A stretch of 13,399 nt of DNA from Candidatus Zixiibacteriota bacterium (GCA_036170655.1 JAVHPP010000077.1:1-13399); one strand, 5' to 3'; shown: positions 1 through 13,399, counted from the stretch's first letter. Numbers and translations are program-made. Notes: generated by a model from the letters alone, not told the origin.

Positions 1-113
1 CCTGTCGCTGCACCCGCCGTATACGAAAAAACGGATGGTAGGAAGACGGACGAAACGTACCACGCTCGGGCGACCTGCAAGTCTTGAACCGCCAGTCTGA
101 CATTGGAGTGAGT

Positions 114-1472
114 ATGACGAAAAAGGGAAAGAAGAAACTGTTCATCATCGGCGGTATCGTCGTCGTGGCGGCCATTTTGGTCGTAGTCAATCTGACACGT
201 TCGTCCGCCAAGACAACGAAAGTCACGACAGCGAAGGTCAAGCAGGGCAAGCTGGTGTCGCTCGTGACCGCGTCGGGGAAGGTCAAGCCGAAGACTGAGG
301 TGAAGATTTCCGCCAACGTGTCCGGTGAAATCGTCGGCCTCCCTGTTGTGGAGGGGCAGCGTGTCAGCAAGGGCGACCTGCTGGTTCAGATCGAGCCCAA
401 GCAGTATGAGGCGCAGGTGCGTCAGACGCAGGCTGGCTACGAAGCGGCGGTCGCGTCGATGAAACTGGAGGAGGCATCAGCCAACGAAGCGCAACTTATC
501 CATGAGCGCCAGAAGGCGATGTTCGAGAAAGGTCTGACGTCGAAGGAGGCCTACGACGCCGCCAGAACGCGTCACGAGACTGCCCAGGCATCACTCGATG
601 CTGCCCGCTCGCGGGTCCAGCAATCTAAAGCATCCGTTGACCAAGCCCGCGAGAGCCTGAGTTATACCACCATCCGGTCCCCAATCGATGGTTATGTCAC
701 GGATCTCCGTTCAGAGCTCGGTGAAATCGTGATGGGGTCTCTGAACTATCAGGCATCGGTCATCATGGTTGTCAGCGATCTGTCGGAGATTGAAGTCGAA
801 GTCGAAGTCGACGAGACAGACATCGATCAGGTGGCGCTGACGCAGGCGGTCAAGATCAAGCTGGATGCGATCCCCGACACGTCATTCGCCGGACAAGTGA
901 CCAAGATCGGCAACACGGCCAAGGTCACGGGTCTGGGTTCACAGGATCAGGTGACCAACTTTCTCGTGACCATCCTGGTTACCGACAGCGTCCCCAACAT
1001 CAAGCCCGGCATGACCGCGACATGTGAGATCACAACCAACTCGCGCGACAATGTGCTCAAGATTCCCATCGGCGCTGTGGTTCTGCGTGACGAGAGTTTT
1101 CTAAAGAAGCACGATGGGAAAACGGCGGAGTCTTCCTCTTCCGTCGGCGTGAGTGAGGCGGCCGCAGCGAATGACAGTGATTCCGCGAAAGCGGCGAACG
1201 ACGACGAGAACACTAAGAAGAAGCCACTGGAAGGGGTTTTCGTGGTGCGTGGTGGAAAGGCGATGTTTGTCCAAGTGACGACTGGCATTGCCGACCAGCA
1301 GAACATCGAGGTGCTCTTGGGGTTGCAGAAGAATGATGAGATCGTCGTCGGGCCGTTCCGCACGTTACGCTCTCTCGAAGATGGTGACCGGGTGGAAGCC
1401 AAAGAGGAAAAAGCGGGCGCCAGGTCCAAGGATACCGGCAACAACAAGGACGGCAGCGACAAGGATGCCTGA
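114..1472 (+). CDS. Efflux periplasmic adaptor subunit (membrane fusion protein, MacA/HlyD-like)
   Basis: Basic N-terminus plus one TM anchor ([20 protein letters not shown]); lipoyl-like halves ([25 protein letters not shown] and [10 protein letters not shown]) flank an alpha-helical hairpin; beta-barrel motifs VDETDI and IKPGMTA. ATG 114 chosen over TTG 84 because GGAG lies at 105-108. Confidence 0.93.
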
Positions 1473-1528
1473 ACTGCGGCAGCGGGGAATCGCAGCGACG
1501 TTTCCCGAACCAGGATTGTGAGTTATCG

Positions 1529-2221
1529 ATGCTGATCAAGACAGAGAACCTGTGGAAGACCTACCGCATGGGCGACGAGGAGGTCCACGCGCTTCGGGGC
1601 GTTTCGATTGGGATCAAGAAGGGTGAGTATGTGGCCATCATGGGCCCCTCGGGATCGGGAAAATCTACGCTCATGAACCTGATCGGATGCCTGGACACGC
1701 CCTCGCAGGGAACGTATGAATTGAATGGACGCCAGGTGGCGTCGATGAACGACGACGAGCTGGCCTTTATCCGCAATAAGGAAATCGGGTTTGTCTTTCA
1801 GACATTCAACCTGCTGCCACGGGCGACCGCGCTGCACAATGTCGAGCTCCCGCTCATCTACAATGGCACACCGGGGGAAACACGCATCGACATGGCCAAA
1901 CGCGCGCTGGAGATGGTTGATTTGGGCGATCGTATGACCCACCGCCCGAACCAGTTGTCCGGCGGTCAAAGGCAGCGTGTCGCCATCGCGCGCGCGCTGG
2001 TCAACAACCCCTCACTCATTCTCGCCGACGAGCCCACCGGGAATCTGGACACCAAGACCGGCGTGGAGATCATGGGTGTATTCGATCGCCTGCACGAGGC
2101 GGGGAATACGATCATCATCGTGACCCATGAACACGACGTCGCGCAGTATGCTGACCGGATCATCCACATTCGCGACGGACAGGCCGAACGGGAAGAGACA
2201 GGCCGGAAGACGGCCGCCTGA
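1529..2221 (+). CDS. ABC transporter ATP-binding protein, MacB/LolD family
   Basis: Walker [21 protein letters not shown], signature [15 protein letters not shown], Walker [13 protein letters not shown]-loop VTHE. Confidence 0.96.
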
Positions 2222-2224
2222 GCG

Positions 2225-3445
<1,221 letters not shown>

Positions 3446-3487
3446 CGCGATGATGATTGTTGACGGGCACATCTGACGGACCCAATC

Positions 3488-4738
3488 ATGTCGCTGCAAC
3501 TTTTCGAATTCAAGGAAGCGCTGGCGATGGCGATGGGCGCCATCCGGTCAAACAAGCTCCGCTCGTTCCTGACCGTGCTGGGGGTTCTGATCGGCGTCAG
3601 TTCGGTGATTGGCATGGTCTCGCTGATCACGGGTCTGAACAATTCGATGGCGCGGCAGATCGAATCTCTGGGGTCGAATGTCATCTACGTCAGTAAGTTC
3701 AAACCGGGCATCGTGATGGGCAACCGCTCCTCGGAAGAGCGCAACCGCAAGGGGATTGTCTACGAGGATGCCGAGGCCATTCAGGCGAATTGCCCTCTGA
3801 TCCAGTCGGTCTCTCCGGAGAACCACTATTTCAAGCCCCCCTCTGGCAACACGGCGAAGTACGAAAAAAATGAAGTCCTTCGTCCCGATCTGGCCGGTGT
3901 CCTGCCGACCTATCAGGACGTCAACAACACCGAGATGGCCGAAGGGCGTTTCCTCAGCGACGTTGACAATCACTTCCGCCGGACGATCTGTGTCGTGGGA
4001 TCGGACGTGGCAAAGACGCTCTTTCCGGGATTGGATCCGATCGGCAAGGACATCGTTGTCAATGGCAAGCCATTCACCGTGATCGGTGTGGTGGCCAAGC
4101 GCGAGTCTCTCTTGGGAGAATCGATGAACACTTTCATCCTGATTCCCTACGAGACTTTTGCGAAACTCTATCCGTGGGAGAAGGAACTCTGGCTTGGCTG
4201 CCGTGCCCAAAGCGCCGAAGTGATGCTGGCCGCGACCGACCAGATTACGGAACTGATGCGCCGCCGACGGGGCATCCCCTACGACAAGCCCGAAGACTTT
4301 GCGGTCTTCACACAGGAAACCCTCATGGAGCAGTACCGCAGCATCACCGGTGTCATCTACATCGCCATGGTGGTGATCTCGTCCATTGGGTTGATGGTCG
4401 GCGGCGTCGGCGTGATGAACATCATGCTGGTGTCGGTGACTGAGCGCACCCGCGAGATCGGGATTCGCAAGGCGATCGGCGCCCGCCGAAGAAACATTGT
4501 CTGGCAGTTCCTCATTGAAGCGATGACGCTGTCCGGATTGGGAGGGGTCATCGGCATCCTGTTGGGTGTCGGGCTGGCGGTGCTGATCAATGCGGTGTCC
4601 CCCCTTCCCGCCGCGGTTTCGCCGTTCTGGATTGTGATTGCCTTCTCGGTCTCGGTTCTCGTTGGCTTGGTGTTCGGGATTTACCCTGCCTATCGTGCAG
4701 CCAAGGTCGATCCGATCATCAGTCTCCGGTATGAATGA
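3488..4738 (+). CDS. ABC transporter permease, MacB/FtsX family (second paralog)
   Basis: NKLRSFLTVLGVLIGV, GGVGVMNIMLVSVTERTREIGIRKAIGA, C-terminal AAKVDPIISLRYE. Confidence 0.95.
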   Translation: MSLQLFEFKEALAMAMGAIRSNKLRSFLTVLGVLIGVSSVIGMVSLITGLNNSMARQIESLGSNVIYVSKFKPGIVMGNRSSEERNRKGIVYEDAEAIQANCPLIQSVSPENHYFKPPSGNTAKYEKNEVLRPDLAGVLPTYQDVNNTEMAEGRFLSDVDNHFRRTICVVGSDVAKTLFPGLDPIGKDIVVNGKPFTVIGVVAKRESLLGESMNTFILIPYETFAKLYPWEKELWLGCRAQSAEVMLAATDQITELMRRRRGIPYDKPEDFAVFTQETLMEQYRSITGVIYIAMVVISSIGLMVGGVGVMNIMLVSVTERTREIGIRKAIGARRRNIVWQFLIEAMTLSGLGGVIGILLGVGLAVLINAVSPLPAAVSPFWIVIAFSVSVLVGLVFGIYPAYRAAKVDPIISLRYE

Positions 4739-4832: not shown

Positions 4833-6161
4833 ATGCGCGGCCTGATCAACCCGAGAGTCCTGTGGGCGTCCATGAAGACATTGGGCGGAACGGCGTTGCT
4901 GGTCTTTGCCCTCGGAGTGCCGGTGCAATCGCAGACAGAGTTTTCGGGTCTGCCGGGTCCCGGTGTGCCCGCCTTTGACCTCGATGTGGCAGCCTTCCGT
5001 CAGACGGCAGATTCAGCGCGACTGGAGATCTACTACCGCATCACCAATCCGCACCTGTCCTATATCAAGAAGGGCGACGAGTACATCGCCTCGTATGAGA
5101 TCTCGGCGGTTCTCAAAGGAGACCGCGATCAGCAGGCGGCATCGGCCACCAACACGGAAAAGTACATCGTGACGAGCTACGATGAGACGCGACGGACGTC
5201 CGGGTATTTGATTAATGTCCTGACGATGACCGCGGGGGGGGGCCAGTACGACCTCCTGGTCACGGTCAACGACCGAGTCTCCGGTGGCACGCACACGGTT
5301 CATCGTCCGGTCGACCTACGGGACTTCGGCAGCGACGACTGGGTGTTTGGCGGGCCTGAATTTTTCATTCCGGATGCTCCGGCCCCACGGCAGGAGCGGT
5401 ACCTGAAGGATACTCTGGCGCTTGTCCCGAATGTGACCCGCACCGTCGGCGGAGGTGACTCCCCGTTGTCGATGTATTTCGAAGTCTATTCCCTGCCGCG
5501 CCACCCGGCGCAACGGGTCATCGTCCGTTTGAGCCAGCAGGCCGGGCATCATCGTCTGACGGATACGCTGGCCATCGATACCTCGCTACGACGCGCACCG
5601 GTTCTTTACCGCACTCCGCTCAAGGGATTCGAGGGTGGCGACGTGCGTATGGAACTGCAGGCCATAGACGGGAATGGACGTCCCGTCGGCAATCCGCGTG
5701 ATCTGCTCTTCTCCATTGACTGGTCTCTTCTTTCCTTGTTTGAGGGCAACTGGAACGAGATGATCGGCATGCTGGTTCATATCGCCACCCACGACGAGAT
5801 GGAGACCCTGAAAAAGACACCGCCCGAAGACCGTGCGGCTGCGCTGGAGCAATTCTGGAAATCCAAAGATCCCAGCCCCGAGAGCGAAGAGAACGAGTGG
5901 AAACAAGAGTATTACCGGCGTATCCAGTTTGCCAACCAGCAGTATACGACCCCATTCCAGCCGGGATGGCGGACGGATTTTGGCACGGTGTACATCAAGT
6001 ATGGCGAGCCGGATGAAGTCGAGCGGTTCCCCTTCGAGATTGGGCGAAAGCCGTACGAAATCTGGTACTATTATGCGCAGCGGCGCCAATTTGTATTTGT
6101 CGACGCCAAGGGAAATGGTGAATATGAACTCCAATATCCGTATGACGGCATTGTCCGGTAG
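4833..6161 (+). CDS. Secreted GWxTD domain-containing protein
   Basis: RBS AGGAG at 4822-4826; signal-peptide-like N-terminus; C-terminal FWKSKDPSP...EYYRRIQFAN...PGWRTDFGTVYIKYGEPD...EIWYY is characteristic of the GWxTD domain. Confidence 0.88.
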   Translation: MRGLINPRVLWASMKTLGGTALLVFALGVPVQSQTEFSGLPGPGVPAFDLDVAAFRQTADSARLEIYYRITNPHLSYIKKGDEYIASYEISAVLKGDRDQQAASATNTEKYIVTSYDETRRTSGYLINVLTMTAGGGQYDLLVTVNDRVSGGTHTVHRPVDLRDFGSDDWVFGGPEFFIPDAPAPRQERYLKDTLALVPNVTRTVGGGDSPLSMYFEVYSLPRHPAQRVIVRLSQQAGHHRLTDTLAIDTSLRRAPVLYRTPLKGFEGGDVRMELQAIDGNGRPVGNPRDLLFSIDWSLLSLFEGNWNEMIGMLVHIATHDEMETLKKTPPEDRAAALEQFWKSKDPSPESEENEWKQEYYRRIQFANQQYTTPFQPGWRTDFGTVYIKYGEPDEVERFPFEIGRKPYEIWYYYAQRRQFVFVDAKGNGEYELQYPYDGIVR

Positions 6162-6186
6162 GCGAATGGGTGGCGGCGATTGTGCG

Positions 6187-7605
6187 ATGACGACGTTCCA
6201 GCGCGTTGCGGCGCCGGTGCGCATCACGCTTCTGACGGCGCTGTTGTTGCTGGCCACGGCACACATAGCGGGGGCAATTGACGGGAAGGGCCCTGTCCGG
6301 ATGTGGGTTGACTATGCGGCCTTCCGCTATGCGCCGGATTCCCGCGATGGGTATGTCGAGTTCTACTACGAATTAAAGCGCGTGGATTTCCAATTCCACG
6401 TGGTCGATTCTCTGCTGCGTGCGGACGTCTACACGTGGGTCCACGTGCGAGACTCGGCCGGCCATCCGGTTGATTCGGTTGGCGGGGCTTTTGTCTCGAT
6501 TGTGCAGGATTCGACGGAGATCGCCGATTCGACCTTTACCATTTTCTTTGCGCGTGCCTTGCTGTTGCACCCTGGAGAATACAGAGCCCGCATGGTGGTC
6601 GCCGACCTGATCACCAAGCACTCATCGGAAGCGGACTTCCCGATTCGTGTCCCGGATTTTTCCGCCAGGGGATTGACCCTCTCGGACATTCAGCTGGGTT
6701 ACGACATCATCAATCGCCGGATGGATACGGTGGAAGTGTACCTGGATGTGCTGGAGAAGAACAGGTACAAGGTGTATCCGGACTGCCGCGGTCTGATCAG
6801 CCAGAGCCGGTCGCTTTTGTTTCTGTACACCGAGGCATACAACCTGGATTACGGCCCATCGCGGGACAATTCCTACGATCTGACCATCTCGGTTGTCCCA
6901 GGCGACACCGGCGTCCCTCGGCCGTTGAGCGTGCAGAGACTGACCAAGCCGGGTACGACGGCCGTGCTGGCGACCGGCGTCAATACCCGGGGCTTGGCCC
7001 CGGGCGCTTACCGGTTGCGCATCGACTTGAAGGATCTGGCCAGCGGCCAACAGGCCTCGGCGCAGAAGGGATTTTATGTCGTGCCTCCTCTCATAGTCGA
7101 TTCACTGACTGACGAAGAGGTCCAACGCATCCGCGACATCATTTCCTATATTGCCCATCCCGGCGAACTGCAGACGTTCGAGCGGCTGAACATGGAGGGA
7201 AAACGCGCCTTCTGGGTTCAATTCTGGAAAGATCGCGACCCGACCCCTGGGACACCGGAAAATGAATTCAAGGATGAACACTTGCAGCGGATGAACTACG
7301 CCAACGAGCGGTTCTCCGTCGGGTACCAGAAGCGCAGCGATGGATGGCGGACCGACATGGGACGAGTCTATATTGTCTACGGGCCGCCCAGTACTGCTGA
7401 ACGATTCCCATTCACGGCGCAGAACCCGCCGGCGGAGATGTGGTTCTATGACAATATGTCGGGCCAGGGTCAGGTATATTTCCTTTTTATTGACGAGAGC
7501 GGCTATGGTGAATACAACCTGGTGACGTCTTCAGCGCGGGGGGAACAACGCAACCCCGCTTGGGAGCGTCAGGTGCAGGCGGGCGCCTTCGAACGAAAGC
7601 AGTAG
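6187..7605 (+). CDS. Secreted GWxTD domain-containing protein (second paralog)
   Basis: FWKDRDPTPGTPENEF...RMNYANERF...DGWRTDMGRVYIVYGPP...EMWFY. Start placed at ATG 6187 (MTTFQRVAAPVRITLLTALLLLATAHIAGA signal peptide); ATG 6166 is an alternative. The ORF-track start at 5833 overlaps the previous gene. Confidence 0.86.
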   Translation: MTTFQRVAAPVRITLLTALLLLATAHIAGAIDGKGPVRMWVDYAAFRYAPDSRDGYVEFYYELKRVDFQFHVVDSLLRADVYTWVHVRDSAGHPVDSVGGAFVSIVQDSTEIADSTFTIFFARALLLHPGEYRARMVVADLITKHSSEADFPIRVPDFSARGLTLSDIQLGYDIINRRMDTVEVYLDVLEKNRYKVYPDCRGLISQSRSLLFLYTEAYNLDYGPSRDNSYDLTISVVPGDTGVPRPLSVQRLTKPGTTAVLATGVNTRGLAPGAYRLRIDLKDLASGQQASAQKGFYVVPPLIVDSLTDEEVQRIRDIISYIAHPGELQTFERLNMEGKRAFWVQFWKDRDPTPGTPENEFKDEHLQRMNYANERFSVGYQKRSDGWRTDMGRVYIVYGPPSTAERFPFTAQNPPAEMWFYDNMSGQGQVYFLFIDESGYGEYNLVTSSARGEQRNPAWERQVQAGAFERKQ

Positions 7606-7640
7606 TGCTCGTCCGGCGCTCCAAGGAATCGAAGCCACTC

Positions 7641-8390
7641 ATGCTGAAAACGCAGCAACTGACCAAACATTTTCAAGATAAGAAACGCGGCGCGATCAAG
7701 GCGGTCGACGGCATCGATCTGGATTGCCACAGCGGGGAGATCTTCGGTCTGCTCGGCTTGAATGGCGCCGGCAAAACGACGACGCTGCGTCTTTTGGCGA
7801 CCATCCTTCGTCCTGACAGCGGCACGGTCACAGTTGACGGGGCCGATGCGGTGTCACACCCGGAGAAGGTCCGCGCCAAGATTGGCTTTCTCACGGGTAC
7901 GACGGGTCTGTATCTGCGTTTGACGCCGCGGGAGATTCTCCGGTATTTCGGGCAGTTGTCCGGTATGGACACGTCGTCTATCAGGCGTCGTTCCGACGAT
8001 CTGATTCAGCGCTTGGGAATGGGCGATTTCGCCGACCGCCGGGTGGACAAGCTCTCCAGCGGGCAGAAGCAGAGGACCTCCATTGCACGGACATTGATCC
8101 ATGATCCACCGCTGTTGATACTCGATGAACCGACTACTGGTCTCGACGTTGTCACCTCGCGCGCCATTGTCGATTTCATCCGTGAGGCACGCGGTGAGGG
8201 GAAATGCGTGATTCTTTCCACGCACATCATGCATGAGGCGGCCAAGCTTTGTGACCGCATTGCCATTCTCCACTCCGGCCGCATTCGGCGGATGGGTACA
8301 TTGGCTGACTTTCGTGCTTACTATGGACACGAAGACCTCGACGACATTTTTGTGGCTGCCATAGACGGCGACGGAGAACCCTCGCGATGA
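7641..8390 (+). CDS. ABC exporter ATP-binding subunit, NatA-like
   Basis: Walker A GLNGAGKTT, signature LSSGQKQR, Walker B ILDEPTTGLD, STH loop. Start at ATG 7641 (MLKTQQLTKHF) avoids overlap with the upstream gene. Confidence 0.9.
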   Translation: MLKTQQLTKHFQDKKRGAIKAVDGIDLDCHSGEIFGLLGLNGAGKTTTLRLLATILRPDSGTVTVDGADAVSHPEKVRAKIGFLTGTTGLYLRLTPREILRYFGQLSGMDTSSIRRRSDDLIQRLGMGDFADRRVDKLSSGQKQRTSIARTLIHDPPLLILDEPTTGLDVVTSRAIVDFIREARGEGKCVILSTHIMHEAAKLCDRIAILHSGRIRRMGTLADFRAYYGHEDLDDIFVAAIDGDGEPSR

Positions 8391-9691
8391 GCGGGACGCT
8401 GATTATCTTCTTCAAGGAACTGAAGGACATTCTACGTGACCGGCGCACCATCATCTCGATGGTGTTGGTCCCGATGCTCTTCTATCCGATCATGTCGATC
8501 GGATTGGGAAGTCTCATCTCATCGCAAGTGGAGAAGACACGCGCGGAGCGGCAGCCAATTATGATTCTGCCGTCGCACGCCGAGCCGGGGCTGATGGTCA
8601 GCCTCGCGGCCGACACGAGCCTGCGTCTTGTTCCCAGTGATTCCATCCTGAAATTGCTCTTACAGCAAGCGGAGAACGACACAACGCTTGACAAGACGCT
8701 GATCCGCCGCATCTTCAGTTCCCTTCCTTCTGCGATTCCCGACTCGATCAAGCAGCCGATTTACTATGCGGCGGTGGCGCAGAAATGGATCCGTGCCGTC
8801 GCTGAATTGCCGGAGTCCCTTCCGTCCAGTGCTGGTCCCGATTCTGTCATCGTTGGTGTCTACACCGACCAGGCGGAGATCAAGTCCGACGCCGCCGGGG
8901 ATCATATCCGGGAGCGAATGAGGACGGTGAATGACTCGCTCACCGACAGACGCCTCGCGCCGTTTGGCGTCAGCCAGCGTTCGCTGCGGCCCTTCTGGAT
9001 CGGCTCAGCCGACATCGCGCCCAAATCAAAGCAGGCGGGACGGTTCCTGGCCATCCTGCTTCCCTACATGCTCATGATTCTGACGTTCACCGGCGGGATG
9101 TATCCCGCACTCGACATCACGGCGGGGGAGAAAGAACGCAACACGCTCGAGACGCTGCTGGTTGCGCCCGTGTCGCGCTGGCAGATCGCGCTGGGTAAGT
9201 TTCTGACGGTGATGACCGCGGGATTCGTGACCATGCTGCTGGCAACCGCGTCGATGACTTTCAGCATGAAATGGGGCGCGATGCAGTTTTCGGATCAGGG
9301 AGCGCAGTCGCTTCCCATGGGCATGTCGGGGACGGCCGTCGGCTGGATCCTTCTTCTGATGATCCCCACGTCCACGCTCTTTTCATCTCTGCTGGTCGTT
9401 GTCTCGATCTCCGCCCGCAGCTATAAAGAAGCGCAGAGTTATGCGACGCCGCTTCTCATGATGATCATCCTGCCGGCGATGGTCTCGTTTGTACCGGGGA
9501 TCGAACTGAACTGGAGTCTGGCATTCGTACCGGTGGTCAATCTCTCTCTGGCGCTCAAGGACGTGATCCTTGGCGTGGAGAAACCGCTTCAGATCCTGCT
9601 TGTGTTTGCCGCCACGGCGGTCTACGCGTCGTTCATGTTGTTTGTCACCGCGCGTATTTTCCAGCGCGAATCGGTGCTGTTCCGGACGTGA
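8387..9691 (+). CDS. ABC-2 type exporter permease, NatB-like
   Basis: FKELKDILRDRRT N-terminus, AGEKERNTLETLLVAPVSR..IALGKF and ARSYKEAQSY motifs typical of NatB-like permeases. ATGA overlap with the ATPase stop suggests translational coupling. Confidence 0.88.
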   Translation: MSGTLIIFFKELKDILRDRRTIISMVLVPMLFYPIMSIGLGSLISSQVEKTRAERQPIMILPSHAEPGLMVSLAADTSLRLVPSDSILKLLLQQAENDTTLDKTLIRRIFSSLPSAIPDSIKQPIYYAAVAQKWIRAVAELPESLPSSAGPDSVIVGVYTDQAEIKSDAAGDHIRERMRTVNDSLTDRRLAPFGVSQRSLRPFWIGSADIAPKSKQAGRFLAILLPYMLMILTFTGGMYPALDITAGEKERNTLETLLVAPVSRWQIALGKFLTVMTAGFVTMLLATASMTFSMKWGAMQFSDQGAQSLPMGMSGTAVGWILLLMIPTSTLFSSLLVVVSISARSYKEAQSYATPLLMMIILPAMVSFVPGIELNWSLAFVPVVNLSLALKDVILGVEKPLQILLVFAATAVYASFMLFVTARIFQRESVLFRT

Positions 9692-9800
9692 GGGACTATC
9701 TCTCGCTGCGCTTTCTATCGGCGTAGTGGGAGATATTGTGGTGCCGAGTGGAATACTCGGCCTTCGCCGGACACGCGTGCGTTGCGCAGACCAAGGGAAT

Positions 9801-9829
9801 CCCCGTCCCACTTCACGAGTGAGACGGGG
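9801..9829 (-). terminator. GC-rich hairpin between convergent genes, probable terminator of the Cys-type DUF1573-like gene
   Basis: Minus strand CCCCGTCTCACT-CGTGA-AGTGGGACGGGG (12-bp stem with one G:U), about 30 nt past the stop at 9859. The U-tract is weak (ATTCCCTT). Confidence 0.55.
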
Positions 9830-9858: not shown

Positions 9859-10638
9859 TCAGCGTTCCGAGGTCGGAACTGGTCCCCAGCGGCGGGTCTT
9901 GCTGATGGGGATGGAATAACGCGTGTGCTTGGCGTCTGATGCCTCGATCGTGATCGTCTTGTTGAACAGATCGTCGGCCATCTTCGGGTTGATCTTGACC
10001 GCGAAGGTCTTTTCGGCGCCCGGGGTGATCGTCTTGTCCGCCGGGAAGTCGATCTGGACATACTTGTCCGGACGCGACACCACCGTGAAGCTCAGATCGG
10101 ACGGTGAGATGTTCTTGATCTTGAAGTCGTATTCCCATGGCTTCTTCTGATCCTGCGGATGATCCTTGTCCAAATCCACCACCAGCGGGTGGACCTGGAA
10201 CAGGTCGACGGAATCGGGGTTTAGCATCACATCCGCGATGATCGTGAGACGCGGAATGTTTCCCGTGGCATTGCACAGGATCTGGGCGCTCTTGGTGACC
10301 CTCGAGGAATAATGCCCAGTCGAGAAAATCAGTTCTACCTTTGTGCTGTCACCGACAGCCAGCTCCTTTTTGTCGATCGGAGCCTTGGTGCATCCGCACC
10401 CGGGCTTGACGTCGGTAATCCGTAGCGTGTCCTCACCGACATTTTTGATCCAGAATGCATGCGCGATGCTGGTTGCTTGGGGGGCGCGGCCAAAATCAAA
10501 TTCCTCGGCCGAGACCTGAACTTTGGCGGATTTCCCGCCGGTTGGCGTAGCGGTATTGTCCTGCGCGCCAGACGACAGAGCCAGCAGAGCGACGGCTCCG
10601 AGAGCCATCGGCAGAGTCACTGCGTGTTTGAGTCCCAT
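9859..10638 (-). CDS. Exported DUF1573-like (Ig-like fold) protein, CGC motif, Cys copy, 259 aa
   Basis: RBS AAAGGAGA at 10650-10643 before ATG 10638; signal peptide ending SGA|Q; FDFG...HAFWIKNVGEDTLRITDVKPGCGCT...LAVGDS matches the DUF1573 pattern (F..kN.G...L.I..V...CGCT). Confidence 0.85.
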   Translation of the reverse strand: MGLKHAVTLPMALGAVALLALSSGAQDNTATPTGGKSAKVQVSAEEFDFGRAPQATSIAHAFWIKNVGEDTLRITDVKPGCGCTKAPIDKKELAVGDSTKVELIFSTGHYSSRVTKSAQILCNATGNIPRLTIIADVMLNPDSVDLFQVHPLVVDLDKDHPQDQKKPWEYDFKIKNISPSDLSFTVVSRPDKYVQIDFPADKTITPGAEKTFAVKINPKMADDLFNKTITIEASDAKHTRYSIPISKTRRWGPVPTSER

Positions 10639-10784: not shown

Positions 10785-10826
10785 AAACGAAAACCCCGTT
10801 CCGCTGCGCACAGCGGGACGGGGCTT
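10785..10826 (-). terminator. Rho-independent terminator after the TGA-containing paralog
   Basis: Minus strand CCCCGTCCCGCTG-TGCG-CAGCGGAACGGGG (13-bp stem, one mismatch) followed by TTTTCGTTT, about 30 nt after the stop at 10855. Confidence 0.8.
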
Positions 10827-10854: not shown

Positions 10855-11637
10855 TCAGCGTTCCGAGGTCGGAGTGGGTCCCCAGCGGCGCGTCTTGCTG
10901 ATGGGGATGGAATAACGCGTGTGCTTGGCGTCCGATGCCTCGAGCGTGATGGTTTTGTTGAACAGATCGTCGGCCATCTTCTGGTCGAACTTGATGGTGA
11001 AGCTTTTTTCGCTGCCCGGGGCGATCTTCTTGTTCTCCGGGAAGTCGATGCGGACATACTTGTCCGGATGGGAAACCACGGTGAAGCTCAGGTCGGACGG
11101 AGAGACGTTCTTCACTTTGAGTTCGTATTCCCATGGTTTCTTTTGATCTTGCGGACGATCCTTATCCAAATCCACCATCAGTGGATGGACCTGGAAGAGG
11201 TCGACCGAATCTGGGTTCGGCATCACATCCGCGATAATCGTGAGACGCGGAATGTTTCCCGTGGCATTGCACAAGATCTGGGCGCTCTTGGTCACCCGCG
11301 ACGAGTAATGCCCGGTCGAGAAAATCAGTTCTACCTTTGTGCTGTCACCGACAGCCAGCTCCTTTTTGTCGAGCGGAGCTTTTGTGCATCCTCACCCAGG
11401 TTTGACGTCGGTGATACGCAGTGTATCCTCTCCGACGTTTTTGATCCAGAACGCATGGGCGATGCTTGCTCCCTGTGGCACGCGGCCAAAGTCAAATGAC
11501 TCAGCCGAGACCGTGATCTTGGGAAGCTTGCCGCCGACGACAGGAGCGGCCGCGTTGTCTTGCGCACCCGCAGAGGCGGCCCAGAACGCTGTGGTTCCGA
11601 GGGTGACCAGCAAGGTGATGGTGGACTTGAGTCTCAT
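10855..11637 (-). CDS. Exported DUF1573-like protein with in-frame TGA at the CGC-motif Cys; putative selenoprotein (UGC motif), 260 aa
   Basis: ORFs 11637..11392 and 11295..10855 share a frame. Reading through TGA 11394-11392 gives ...TDVKPG-U-GCTKAPLDKKELAVGDSTKVELIFSTGHYSSRVTKSAQ..., collinear with the neighbouring paralog. RBS AAAGGA precedes ATG 11637 and a signal peptide ends AGA|Q. Confidence 0.82.
11341..11380 (-). other. Candidate bacterial SECIS element
   Basis: After the UGA come 11 nt, then stem AGCUCC / GGAGCU with a 12-nt loop starting with G (11380-11357). A second hairpin GCUGUC-GGU-GACAGC follows (11355-11341). Confidence 0.5.
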
Positions 11638-11676
11638 TCGTTGTCCTTTCGATAACGTTTACCAGACTGACAGACA

Positions 11677-11705
11677 AATATATGTATCGGCGTTCATTTC
11701 ATCAA
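11677..11705 (-). promoter_or_regulatory. Putative sigma70-type promoter of the TGA-containing gene
   Basis: Minus strand TTGATG (11705-11700), N17, TATATT (11682-11677), about 40 nt upstream of ATG 11637. Confidence 0.6.
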
Positions 11706-11757: not shown

Positions 11758-12555
11758 TTACCGCGCTGACTTCGAGTGACCCGTGGTATCGGGCCTTTCG
11801 GGGTGACTTCCCATGAAGATGGGCAGTGTGAGACGAGTCGTATCGGCCCCTTCCACCTGAAAGGTCAGAGAGGTAGCCAGAGATGGCGAGATGGCCTTGG
11901 GATCGAAGCGCAGAATAAAGGAACGCTCCTCTCCGGGGACCAGACGCGATGCAACATTCTCCACCGTGACGACACGGTCGGGGCGGTCGACGAGCGCAAC
12001 CTGCAGTGATGCGTTTGAAACGTTTTTCATCCCGATTTTGAGTTCGCGCGCCTCACCGGAGGTTTGAAATGAGACAGTTTCAATGTCGATGCGGCGCGGT
12101 GTGAGACGGAGCGATCCGGTGGGTTCGGAATCGGTCACGATTTGCGCGGTGAATGTCAACGCGGGCACTCGCCCGCCTGCGTTCGACTCAATCTGCGTGA
12201 ACTTCTTGAGCGCTCCGTGAAAGACGCTCGATCCGAATATGATCTGAACTCGGGCGCTGTCGCCCGGCGCCACTTTGCTTTTCTCTAAGGGTGCCTCGGT
12301 GCACCCGCAGTTGGGAACGAGCTTGGTGATTTCCAACAGTTTGCCCCCCGGGTTCTTCAGCCAGAACACATGCGAGACAAATGATCGTTGAGGCATAAAT
12401 CCGAAATCGAACACCTCATCTGTAACTTTCACGCGCGCTTCGCTGGTCGAGGTCTGAGCGCGGGCACATCCTGCCAGATGTCCGACCACGACAGACCAGA
12501 TAGCGGCAGCGCTCAGCAGTCGACGTATCGAGAGAATGGGAATGCGACGGGCCAT
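11758..12555 (-). CDS. Exported DUF1573-like protein, CGC motif, divergent third copy
   Basis: FDFG...HVFWLKNPGGKLLEITKLVPNCGCTEAPLEKSKVAPGDS; same two-domain layout as its neighbours (...SLTFQVEGADTTRLTLPI). Start is uncertain: ATG 12555 preferred, 12579 possible. Confidence 0.82.
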   Translation of the reverse strand: MARRIPILSIRRLLSAAAIWSVVVGHLAGCARAQTSTSEARVKVTDEVFDFGFMPQRSFVSHVFWLKNPGGKLLEITKLVPNCGCTEAPLEKSKVAPGDSARVQIIFGSSVFHGALKKFTQIESNAGGRVPALTFTAQIVTDSEPTGSLRLTPRRIDIETVSFQTSGEARELKIGMKNVSNASLQVALVDRPDRVVTVENVASRLVPGEERSFILRFDPKAISPSLATSLTFQVEGADTTRLTLPIFMGSHPERPDTTGHSKSAR

Positions 12556-12562
12556 ACAATGT

Positions 12563-12592
12563 AATTTATTGTACAACATGTGATTACGTCAA
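12563..12592 (-). promoter_or_regulatory. Putative promoter of the first gene of the DUF1573-like cluster
   Basis: Minus strand TTGACG (12592-12587), N18, TAAATT (12568-12563) in an AT-rich patch, 7 nt before ATG 12555. Confidence 0.45.
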
Positions 12593-12821: not shown

Positions 12822-13399
12822 ATGTCCGACATCCGACAGCCACTCACGGAACGGCAGCAGGCGATCTATGAGTTTCTCCGCGACTCCATCCAAAGCGACG
12901 GTCGTCCCCCGACCATGCGTGAGATCGGCGAGCGGTTCTTGATGCGTTCGACGAACGGTGTGCGCGAGACCCTGGAAGCGATCGAGAGGAAGGGATATAT
13001 CAAGCGCGCGCCATACTTGTCGCGAGGCATTGAACTGGTCGACTCGGTTCCCACGGCGGCCATTCCCATCCCCATTGTCGGCCGGGTTGCCGCGGGGCTG
13101 CCCCTTCTCGCCGTGGAGAACATCGACGGACATGTTGCGGTTGACCGGTCGTTTCTTCCCACCGGCGAGGTCTTCTCTCTGCGCGTGACGGGTGAGAGCA
13201 TGAAGGACGAGGGAATCAAAGACGGCGATCTCGTGCTGGTGAGAAAGCAAGATTCTGCCCAGCGCGGGGACATTGTCGTTGCCGTCATTGGTGAAGAGGC
13301 GACCGTCAAGAAGTTCTACCCCGAACGGAACCGGGTTCGTCTCGAACCGGCCAATCCCAGTTTCGGGCCGATTATTGTTGATCGCCGGGCCCCGGGCTT
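12822..13399 (+). CDS. lexA: SOS transcriptional repressor LexA, truncated at the 3' window edge
   Basis: Manual translation from ATG 12822 (RBS GAGGGAG upstream): MSDIRQPLTERQQAIYEFLRDSIQSDGRPPTMREIG...STNGV...ERKGYIKR...SRGIEL...IPIVGRVAAGLP (Ala-Gly cleavage site)...LRVTGESM (catalytic Ser)...EATVKK (catalytic Lys)...LEPANP. Absent from the ORF track because no stop lies within the window. Confidence 0.96.
   Translation, partial: MSDIRQPLTERQQAIYEFLRDSIQSDGRPPTMREIGERFLMRSTNGVRETLEAIERKGYIKRAPYLSRGIELVDSVPTAAIPIPIVGRVAAGLPLLAVENIDGHVAVDRSFLPTGEVFSLRVTGESMKDEGIKDGDLVLVRKQDSAQRGDIVVAVIGEEATVKKFYPERNRVRLEPANPSFGPIIVDRRAPG

Follow-up and report, generated by a model that had tools for sequence, protein, structure and literature searches.

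A gene on the minus strand of a 13,399-nt stretch of Candidatus Zixiibacteriota DNA is best explained, at a probability of roughly 0.93 judged from sequence comparisons, as a genuine Zixibacteria selenoprotein gene of the catalogued DUF1573/OS_HP2 family, with selenocysteine (Sec, U) in a U-G-C motif. The stretch, referred to at its full length as the window, is contig C77 of the 184-contig genome assembly G000. The UGA at codon 82 of the gene is almost certainly read as Sec and is neither a mutation nor an assembly error, given that the TGA recurs in homologs, that the codons after it are under purifying selection, that independent contigs carry it, and that the genome contains a Sec-type selD, a tRNA-Sec and part of selA. 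The gene and the two residues of the motif are located as follows:

10855..11637, minus strand: full selenoprotein gene of 260 codons plus the stop TGA at 10857-10855, with predicted read-through at codon 82
11392..11394, minus strand: UGA codon 82, almost certainly read as Sec; homologs share the TGA column, and others have Cys there
11386..11388, minus strand: TGC codon of Cys84, the partner of U82 in the motif; an alignment of 35 sequences shows no variation at C84 or G83

Translated from the ATG at 11637 to the stop TGA at 10857-10855, the minus-strand frame has a sole internal stop, the TGA at 11394-11392, in the context AAA CCT GGG TGA GGA TGC ACA (P-G-U-G-C-T-K). The initial annotation of this DNA had described this single in-frame TGA at codon 82, had aligned it with the TGC at 10398-10396 of a Cys paralog and with the C-G-C of a third copy, and had put the 178 residues after it at about 23 differences (~87% identity) from the Cys paralog, with no frameshifts and no further stops. 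Frame translation and alignment bear out all of this: the TGA lines up with the leading Cys of C-G-C in both tandem paralogs, and the ungapped count over the 178 residues is 23 differences, or 87% identity. A changed genetic code was rejected as the cause of the internal TGA, UGA being an ordinary stop here: 7 of the 11 long open reading frames (ORFs) of the window, the selenoprotein gene included, terminate at TGA.

The same TGA recurs widely among relatives. A six-frame search covered 41 related genomes and found DUF1573 homologs in 40; 35 of the 41 have one or more homologs whose frame is interrupted by a single TGA, and TAA and TAG appear in one row each, both weak matches. When the 20 returned loci were searched by tblastn, 43 of 44 high-scoring segment pairs (HSPs) covered the column of codon 82, and the codon there was TGA in 21, Cys in 22 and never any other. 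The 21 TGA genes belong to 19 genomes of one class, share the motif P-G-*-G-C-T-[KQ]-A-P and range down to 33% identity to the window protein. A second set, consisting of 80 loci from a species-level genome collection and partly overlapping the first, gave 120 covering HSPs (29 TGA, 88 Cys and 3 misaligned at low identity); this set was gathered with a Cys-coded peptide pattern, and the 29:88 ratio is not the frequency of Sec forms. For codons 83-260, comparison with the same-genus ortholog gives a ratio of nonsynonymous to synonymous substitution rates (dN/dS) of 0.15; with the Cys paralog the ratio is 0.19, and with three other family members it lies at 0.29-0.33. The initial annotation had suggested looking for recurrent TGA in orthologs, never replaced by TAA or TAG, and for selective constraint downstream of it, and on both counts the data agree with its proposal of a Sec-containing, signal-peptide-exported, Ig-like DUF1573 protein with a U-G-C motif; the assemblies and the Sec machinery found in the genome likewise support that proposal.

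Two ways of explaining the TGA without Sec were weighed. If the codon were an assembly or sequencing error, or the result of cross-assembly with the paralog, the true codon would be TGC; the window does come from a fragmented, metagenome-type assembly with two near-identical paralogs, and a T>G variant at 11392 occurs in contigs of sequencing runs X3 and X4. That variant, however, lies on a 575-nt contig whose 15 differences in 124 nt match the Cys paralog, meaning that the paralog was aligned to the Sec copy. Separate contigs from all four runs (4/4), covering 11343-11700, keep the TGA intact, with 0, 0, 0 and 7 other differences, the contig with seven coming from a different study. The possibility of an error at 11392, raised in the initial annotation, was thus addressed with contigs, not raw reads, a level at which rare variants may go unseen, and we give an error a negligible probability. 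The TGA could also be a fresh TGC-to-TGA nonsense mutation that made a pseudogene of one recent duplicate and left the Cys paralog as the working copy. Only one base separates TGA from TGC, the two copies are 82% identical overall and sisters in the tree, and the Cys copy shares the same downstream hairpins; yet a fresh mutation would not account for the same TGA in 21 genes of 19 genomes at identities down to 33% and in 29 second-set HSPs, for dN/dS values of 0.15-0.33 after the TGA, or for a hairpin specific to TGA forms that is kept at synonymous sites. The comparative data refute the pseudogene reading, which we consider highly improbable, and locating the codon by tblastn excluded the variant in which the homologs have TGAs in different columns.

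The reading of the codon as Sec is matched by parts of the Sec machinery in the genome. G000 contains selD (331 bits), with its own in-frame TGA in S-G-G-U-A-G-K, and a tRNA-Sec at contig C90 633-729, minus strand, that ARAGORN calls and that reaches 71.9 bits in Rfam. Directly adjoining the tRNA-Sec is the start of selA (~130 codons), which runs off the contig edge (C90:1-729). Of the 41 relatives, 39 have a selD above cut-off, and the genomes of the other two are 59% and 52% complete, so that all of the relatives are taken to be selenium users. selB is above cut-off in four of the five relatives searched for it and just below in the fifth. As a side observation, seven relatives (G031, G017, G020, G015, G022, G029 and G038) have a selD match that lacks the TGA and lies in an open frame 713-796 residues long, suggesting a long, fused form, and G015, G017, G029 and G031 also carry the usual Sec-type selD of about 360 residues.

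The gene is an additional member of an already catalogued selenoprotein family. The initial annotation had called it hidden and had left comparison with published selenoprotein lists to be made; that comparison overturns the novelty of the family, which has been catalogued since 2007. The entry "DUF1573 domain-containing protein, pfam07610, UGC" stands in the 2022 selenoprotein table (PMC9312934), and the same family, under PF07610 with the motif UGC, is in the 2026 table (PMC13188914). The tables of both reviews credit Zhang & Gladyshev 2007 (PMC1976440), which in its passages on new families reports six, OS_HP2 among them, and assigns no function to any; OS_HP2 is represented there by one gene each in the delta-1 and delta-4 Olavius algarvensis symbionts, and it is mentioned in the GOS (Global Ocean Sampling) paper (PMC2398784). 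The best NCBIfam match of the Sec protein is NF041425, "OS_HP2 family (seleno)protein" (E = 1.7e-22). The protein is a relative outside the trusted range of NF041425, and the NCBI model would not name it. The DUF1573 name is seldom mentioned in the literature searched, and the relevant parts of the reviews and of the 2007 paper contain no experimental report on any DUF1573/OS_HP2 member. Because the family has been listed since 2007, the biological gain is modest. For annotation, the gene and the orthologous genes of 19 or more relatives should each count as one selenoprotein gene, and a standard gene caller would stop them at codon 82.

Two hairpins follow the UGA and are candidates for the selenocysteine insertion sequence (SECIS). 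Positions in the hairpins are numbered with the U of UGA as 1:

11357..11380 (positions 15-38), minus strand: hairpin 1, a putative helper or spacer whose 6-bp stem closes a 12-nt loop and begins 11 nt after the UGA; paired in U forms
11341..11355 (positions 40-54), minus strand: hairpin 2, the putative SelB-binding SECIS apex, GCUGUC-GGU-GACAGC; conserved in U forms

In an ungapped alignment of 21 Sec-coding genes (U forms), 96.1% of 228 pair cells are paired, compared with 31.6-61.4% when the pairing partners are slid by 1-3 columns and with 45.2% in the same columns of 21 Cys forms (42.1% for hairpin 2). Hairpin 2, encoded by the codons for A-V-G-D-S, is 99.1% paired in the 21 U forms and invariant at synonymous sites; in the second set, it is perfect in 29 of 29 TGA forms vs. 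2 of 88 Cys forms. Only alongside a UGA codon are the synonymous sites of hairpin 2 kept unchanged. Hairpin 1 is 93% paired in the U forms, with a UA/GU exchange at one pair, and it exists in several versions (GGCUCC/GGAGCU, GGCGCC/GGUGCU and, in distant members, other registers) whose loops vary widely without a conserved G. Folding energies are -8.4 kcal/mol for hairpin 1 alone, -6.8 kcal/mol for hairpin 2 alone and -15.9 kcal/mol for both together. Each of the 41 distinct spacers from U forms folds at -8.4 kcal/mol or lower, and their mean of -10.6 compares with -6.7 for 99 Cys forms; the relatedness of these sequences inflates the p-value of this comparison.

The position of hairpin 2 is fixed as well, its loop beginning 42 nt after the UGA (+46) in all 41 distinct U forms. 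The loop of the selD hairpin begins 17 nt after the UGA (+21), as does the hairpin 1 loop, and the 25-nt offset of the hairpin 2 loop from the selD loop equals hairpin 1 plus one base. A selD survey located the Sec site by motif pattern in 14 of 22 loci, the other 8 being excluded; 11 of the 14, those of G000 and 10 relatives, have a stem topped by a GGU triloop (GGC in one case) that C-G closes, with the loop at +21, and the remaining 3 carry other hairpins. We give about even odds to the proposal that DUF1573 genes carry a distinct bipartite bacterial SECIS, in which an invariant hairpin at 42 nt is combined with a variable helper of ~24 nt and the apex is placed as in selD. SelB with Sec-tRNA(Sec) would be recruited by the invariant 6-bp, GGU-triloop hairpin 2 (11355-11341), and the 24-nt helper hairpin 1 (11380-11357) probably folds out so that hairpin 2 comes to lie at the usual effective distance. 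A two-hairpin layout of this kind was not found in a literature search on SECIS and SelB, and its absence from print is not claimed. If the proposal is true, the UGA-to-SECIS rule concerns folded rather than linear distance, and the layout falls outside the consensus search model, which would help to explain why gene callers cut such genes in two. Genome-wide scans of G000 for genes with a UGA and a GGU hairpin yielded 111 candidates and then 20; all but selD and the selenoprotein gene were rejected as frames that look non-coding.

The roles could be reversed, with hairpin 1 binding SelB as the SECIS and hairpin 2 conserved for another reason. Hairpin 1 starts 11 nt after the UGA and has its loop at +21, a geometry equal to that of the selD SECIS of the same genome, and the spacer folds stably in all 41 distinct U forms. 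This assignment is nevertheless hard to square with loops that differ widely and have no conserved G, with register shifts among distant members, with the invariance of hairpin 2 and its possession of the same C-GGU-G apex as selD, and with the loss of hairpin 2 from Cys forms, where it is kept in 2 of 88. We regard it as unlikely and continue with hairpin 2 as the putative SECIS apex.

A number of points weigh against parts of the selenoprotein interpretation. In G000, selA is present only as the fragment at the contig edge, and selB was not found in searches with SelB-wing_3 (no match), with TIGR00475 (below cut-off) and by tblastn with a same-genus SelB, which returned only other GTPases at 30-38% identity; completeness of G000 is given as 100%, yet selB is not in the assembly. 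Because selA is cut by the contig edge and because the same-genus genome G003 has selB next to selA on the same strand, the simplest reading is that selB lies in an assembly gap beyond C90. The search for selA, selB, selC and selD that the initial annotation had called for therefore turned out well for selD and the tRNA-Sec and fell short for selA, found as a fragment, and for selB. Its expectation that the TGA should occur only in sel+ genomes is consistent with the data but does not discriminate, all of the relatives searched being selenium users and no sel+ vs. sel- contrast being available among them. The NF041425 match, at 79.6 bits, falls short of the cut-off of 100. The invariance of hairpin 2 leaves no covariation, and what supports this hairpin is the difference between TGA and Cys forms. 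As excerpted from PMC13188914, the consensus published for bacterial SECIS elements has a loop of 3-9 nt with an early G, a stem of 4-16 bp and 16-37 nt between UGA and loop; hairpin 2, at 42 nt, is outside this distance range, and hairpin 1 departs from the loop criterion, with 12 nt and no conserved G. The genomic context (lexA, GWxTD proteins and ABC transporters) provides no redox or metal clue except in the distant genome G032, and the function suggested below is taken from the U-G-C motif alone.

Around the coding region, the gene has its own candidate expression and export signals:

11677..11705, minus strand: promoter-like site TTGATG-17-TATATT, a consensus match (3 sites vs. 1.2 expected)
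11644..11648, minus strand: Shine-Dalgarno-like AAGGA, 6 nt upstream of the ATG, read directly from the sequence
11563..11637, minus strand: probable Sec-type (secretory) signal peptide, residues 1-25, with cleavage after A-G-A, judged by eye
10785..10826, minus strand: intrinsic-terminator-like hairpin and U-run 3' of the stop (-27.2 kcal/mol, z = -4.1)

None of 200 shuffles (0/200) folds as well as the terminator-like hairpin. The ribosome-binding site, promoter candidate and terminator that had been reported as intact were all located, as the AAGGA, the 11705-11677 site and the hairpin with its U-run. The signal peptide was judged by eye: the N-terminus of the Sec protein is basic, then hydrophobic, and then reads A-S-A-G-A, without a lipobox, and thus looks like a cleavable signal peptide of the Sec type.

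Two further DUF1573 genes lie in tandem with the selenoprotein gene:

9859..10638, minus strand: Cys paralog, PGCGCTK, with TGC at 10398-10396; both SECIS hairpins are kept, at about 10384-10345
11758..12579, minus strand: third DUF1573 paralog, PNCGCTE, 32% identical and without the SECIS hairpins (alignment and Pfam)

In a quick tree, for which only Shimodaira-Hasegawa-like approximate likelihood ratio test (SH-aLRT) support was computed, the Sec copy and the Cys paralog are sisters (SH-aLRT, 99), and the PNCGC forms make up a single clade (support, 100). The U and PGCGC forms are interleaved, which takes at least five changes of the U label, or two if only starred branches are counted. The hairpins of the Cys paralog are letter-identical to those of the Sec copy, within a run of ~58 identical bases, and synonymous divergence (dS) between the two copies is 0.34 after the Cys codon and 1.28 over codons 41-81. 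The identical hairpins and this difference in dS suggest that the Cys paralog, with its fossil SECIS, arose either by a recent change from Sec to Cys or by gene conversion from the Sec gene. If the bipartite SECIS is real, the Cys paralog, its fossil SECIS still intact, would capture a natural instance of Sec-to-Cys replacement. Offering Sec forms next to old Cys forms and a single fresh one, the family suits tests of what Sec brings to an exported C-G-C center. A separate arrangement was seen in relative G022 (C19, about 7283-9807), where three tandem DUF1573 genes all have an in-frame TGA and hairpin 2, with their helper hairpins in three different registers.

The predicted product consists of two Ig-like domains. 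Pfam DUF1573 (PF07610) matches residues 41-138 over its full length (profile positions 1-98 of 98) with 98.9 bits against a cut-off of 26.1, and Pfam also finds a HYDIN/VesB-like Ig domain. An AlphaFold model built from the 35-sequence alignment has two beta-sandwich domains with a mean predicted local distance difference test (pLDDT) score of 86.9 and a low-confidence N-terminus (pLDDT about 50 over residues 1-30); in this model, U82-G83-C84 follow the strand at residues 73-80. In the same alignment, D98, S99 and K117 are invariant along with G83 and C84, and H61 is nearly so. Foldseek matched the model to 2qsv (E = 1.2e-8) and to HYDIN-type central-apparatus chains (E = 7.6e-12 to 1e-9), and fold and Protein Data Bank (PDB) profile searches together returned ASH/HYDIN-type repeats, chaperone-usher Ig folds and 2QSV. 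Neither Foldseek nor the PDB profile search gave a functional lead, the matches being generic Ig-like/ASH repeats and an uncharacterized protein.

The mature protein would thus be exported through the Sec pathway and would display U82-G-C84 as a selenol/thiol pair, on the loop that follows the strand at 73-80 of a two-domain Ig-like beta-sandwich. Going by the motif, there is perhaps one chance in two that this pair cycles between a selenenylsulfide and a reduced form and so acts as an extracytoplasmic thiol/selenol oxidoreductase center. A real selenoprotein could also use U-G-C as a soft-metal site, for Cu(I), Hg(II) or similar, and serve as a periplasmic metal chaperone or scavenger. Metal-linked selenoprotein families are on record in the published tables (YHS, MerT-like, CopZ-like and cation ATPase; PMC9312934, PMC13188914), and the distant genome G032 has a U form beside Redoxin and YHS-domain genes, but the neighbors in the window and in seven relatives are lexA, GWxTD proteins and ABC transporters, with no metal genes among them, and Pfam and NCBIfam scans detected no metal-binding domain in the protein. 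We regard the metal site as the main alternative, if a less likely one. The initial annotation had proposed a motif that is redox-active or metal-binding rather than purely structural, and the motif may have either role. Two points of interest stand out: the function of the U-G-C pair, for which we favor redox chemistry, and a conserved SECIS apex that lies farther from the UGA than the accepted range.

Transcription of the three DUF1573 genes converges with that of an ABC-2 transporter and diverges from that of lexA, and the rest of the window is arranged as follows:

84-4738 and 7560-9691, plus strand: MacAB-like ATP-binding cassette (ABC) system (HlyD, ATPase, two FtsX/MacB permeases) and ABC-2 transporter, flanking the GWxTD genes
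4833-7605, plus strand: two GWxTD-domain proteins, between the MacAB-like ABC system and the ABC-2 transporter
12822-13397, plus strand: lexA, divergently adjoining the first DUF1573 gene

lexA is a neighbor in seven of the eight Pfam-scanned relatives (L149, L155, L158, L159, L161 and L162 among the loci) and is often followed by a Y-family polymerase (IMS) or DinB-family gene. GWxTD/ABC neighbors recur in five of the eight, from several families (L149, L155, L159, L160 and L161). This lexA/GWxTD/ABC neighborhood is inherited synteny, without a functional clue. At locus L157 (G032:C21), genes for an AhpC/TSA-Redoxin and a YHS-domain protein come after the U form (ORFs 8479-9045 and 9053-9568); YHS is itself a catalogued selenoprotein family in the tables of PMC9312934 and PMC13188914.

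Compared with known systems, the protein shares the tandem Ig-like beta-sandwich of 2QSV, an uncharacterized protein of Porphyromonas gingivalis W83 that is also a profile match (2qsv_A), and of the ASH/HYDIN/PapD-like Ig domains. Those are structural repeats without a known catalytic center, and none is known to carry Sec; the TM-scores (template-modeling scores) of the 2QSV and HYDIN matches are low (0.30-0.36), a consequence of the different orientation of the two domains. With the OS_HP2/DUF1573 family, the gene has in common the Pfam domain above cut-off, U-G-C at the position of C-G-C, Cys homologs, and a stem-loop after the UGA; it differs as a two-domain form with a signal peptide, from Zixibacteria, in tandem arrays with Cys paralogs. 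The equation of OS_HP2 with DUF1573 comes from the NCBIfam name and the attribution in the reviews, the passages of PMC1976440 concerned not naming DUF1573. Like the canonical bacterial SECIS (bSECISearch, E. coli fdhF type), the putative signal lies within the coding region, downstream of the UGA, and hairpin 2, with a small apical GGU loop and 6-bp stem like those in selD of the same genomes, agrees with the canonical loop and stem criteria. Against the energy threshold of that model (-7.5 kcal/mol or lower, as given in part of PMC13188914), hairpin 2 alone is weaker, at -6.8, whereas hairpin 1 alone reaches -8.4 and both together reach -15.9. What sets the DUF1573 genes apart from the canonical element is the extra, variable 24-nt hairpin between the UGA and the conserved hairpin.

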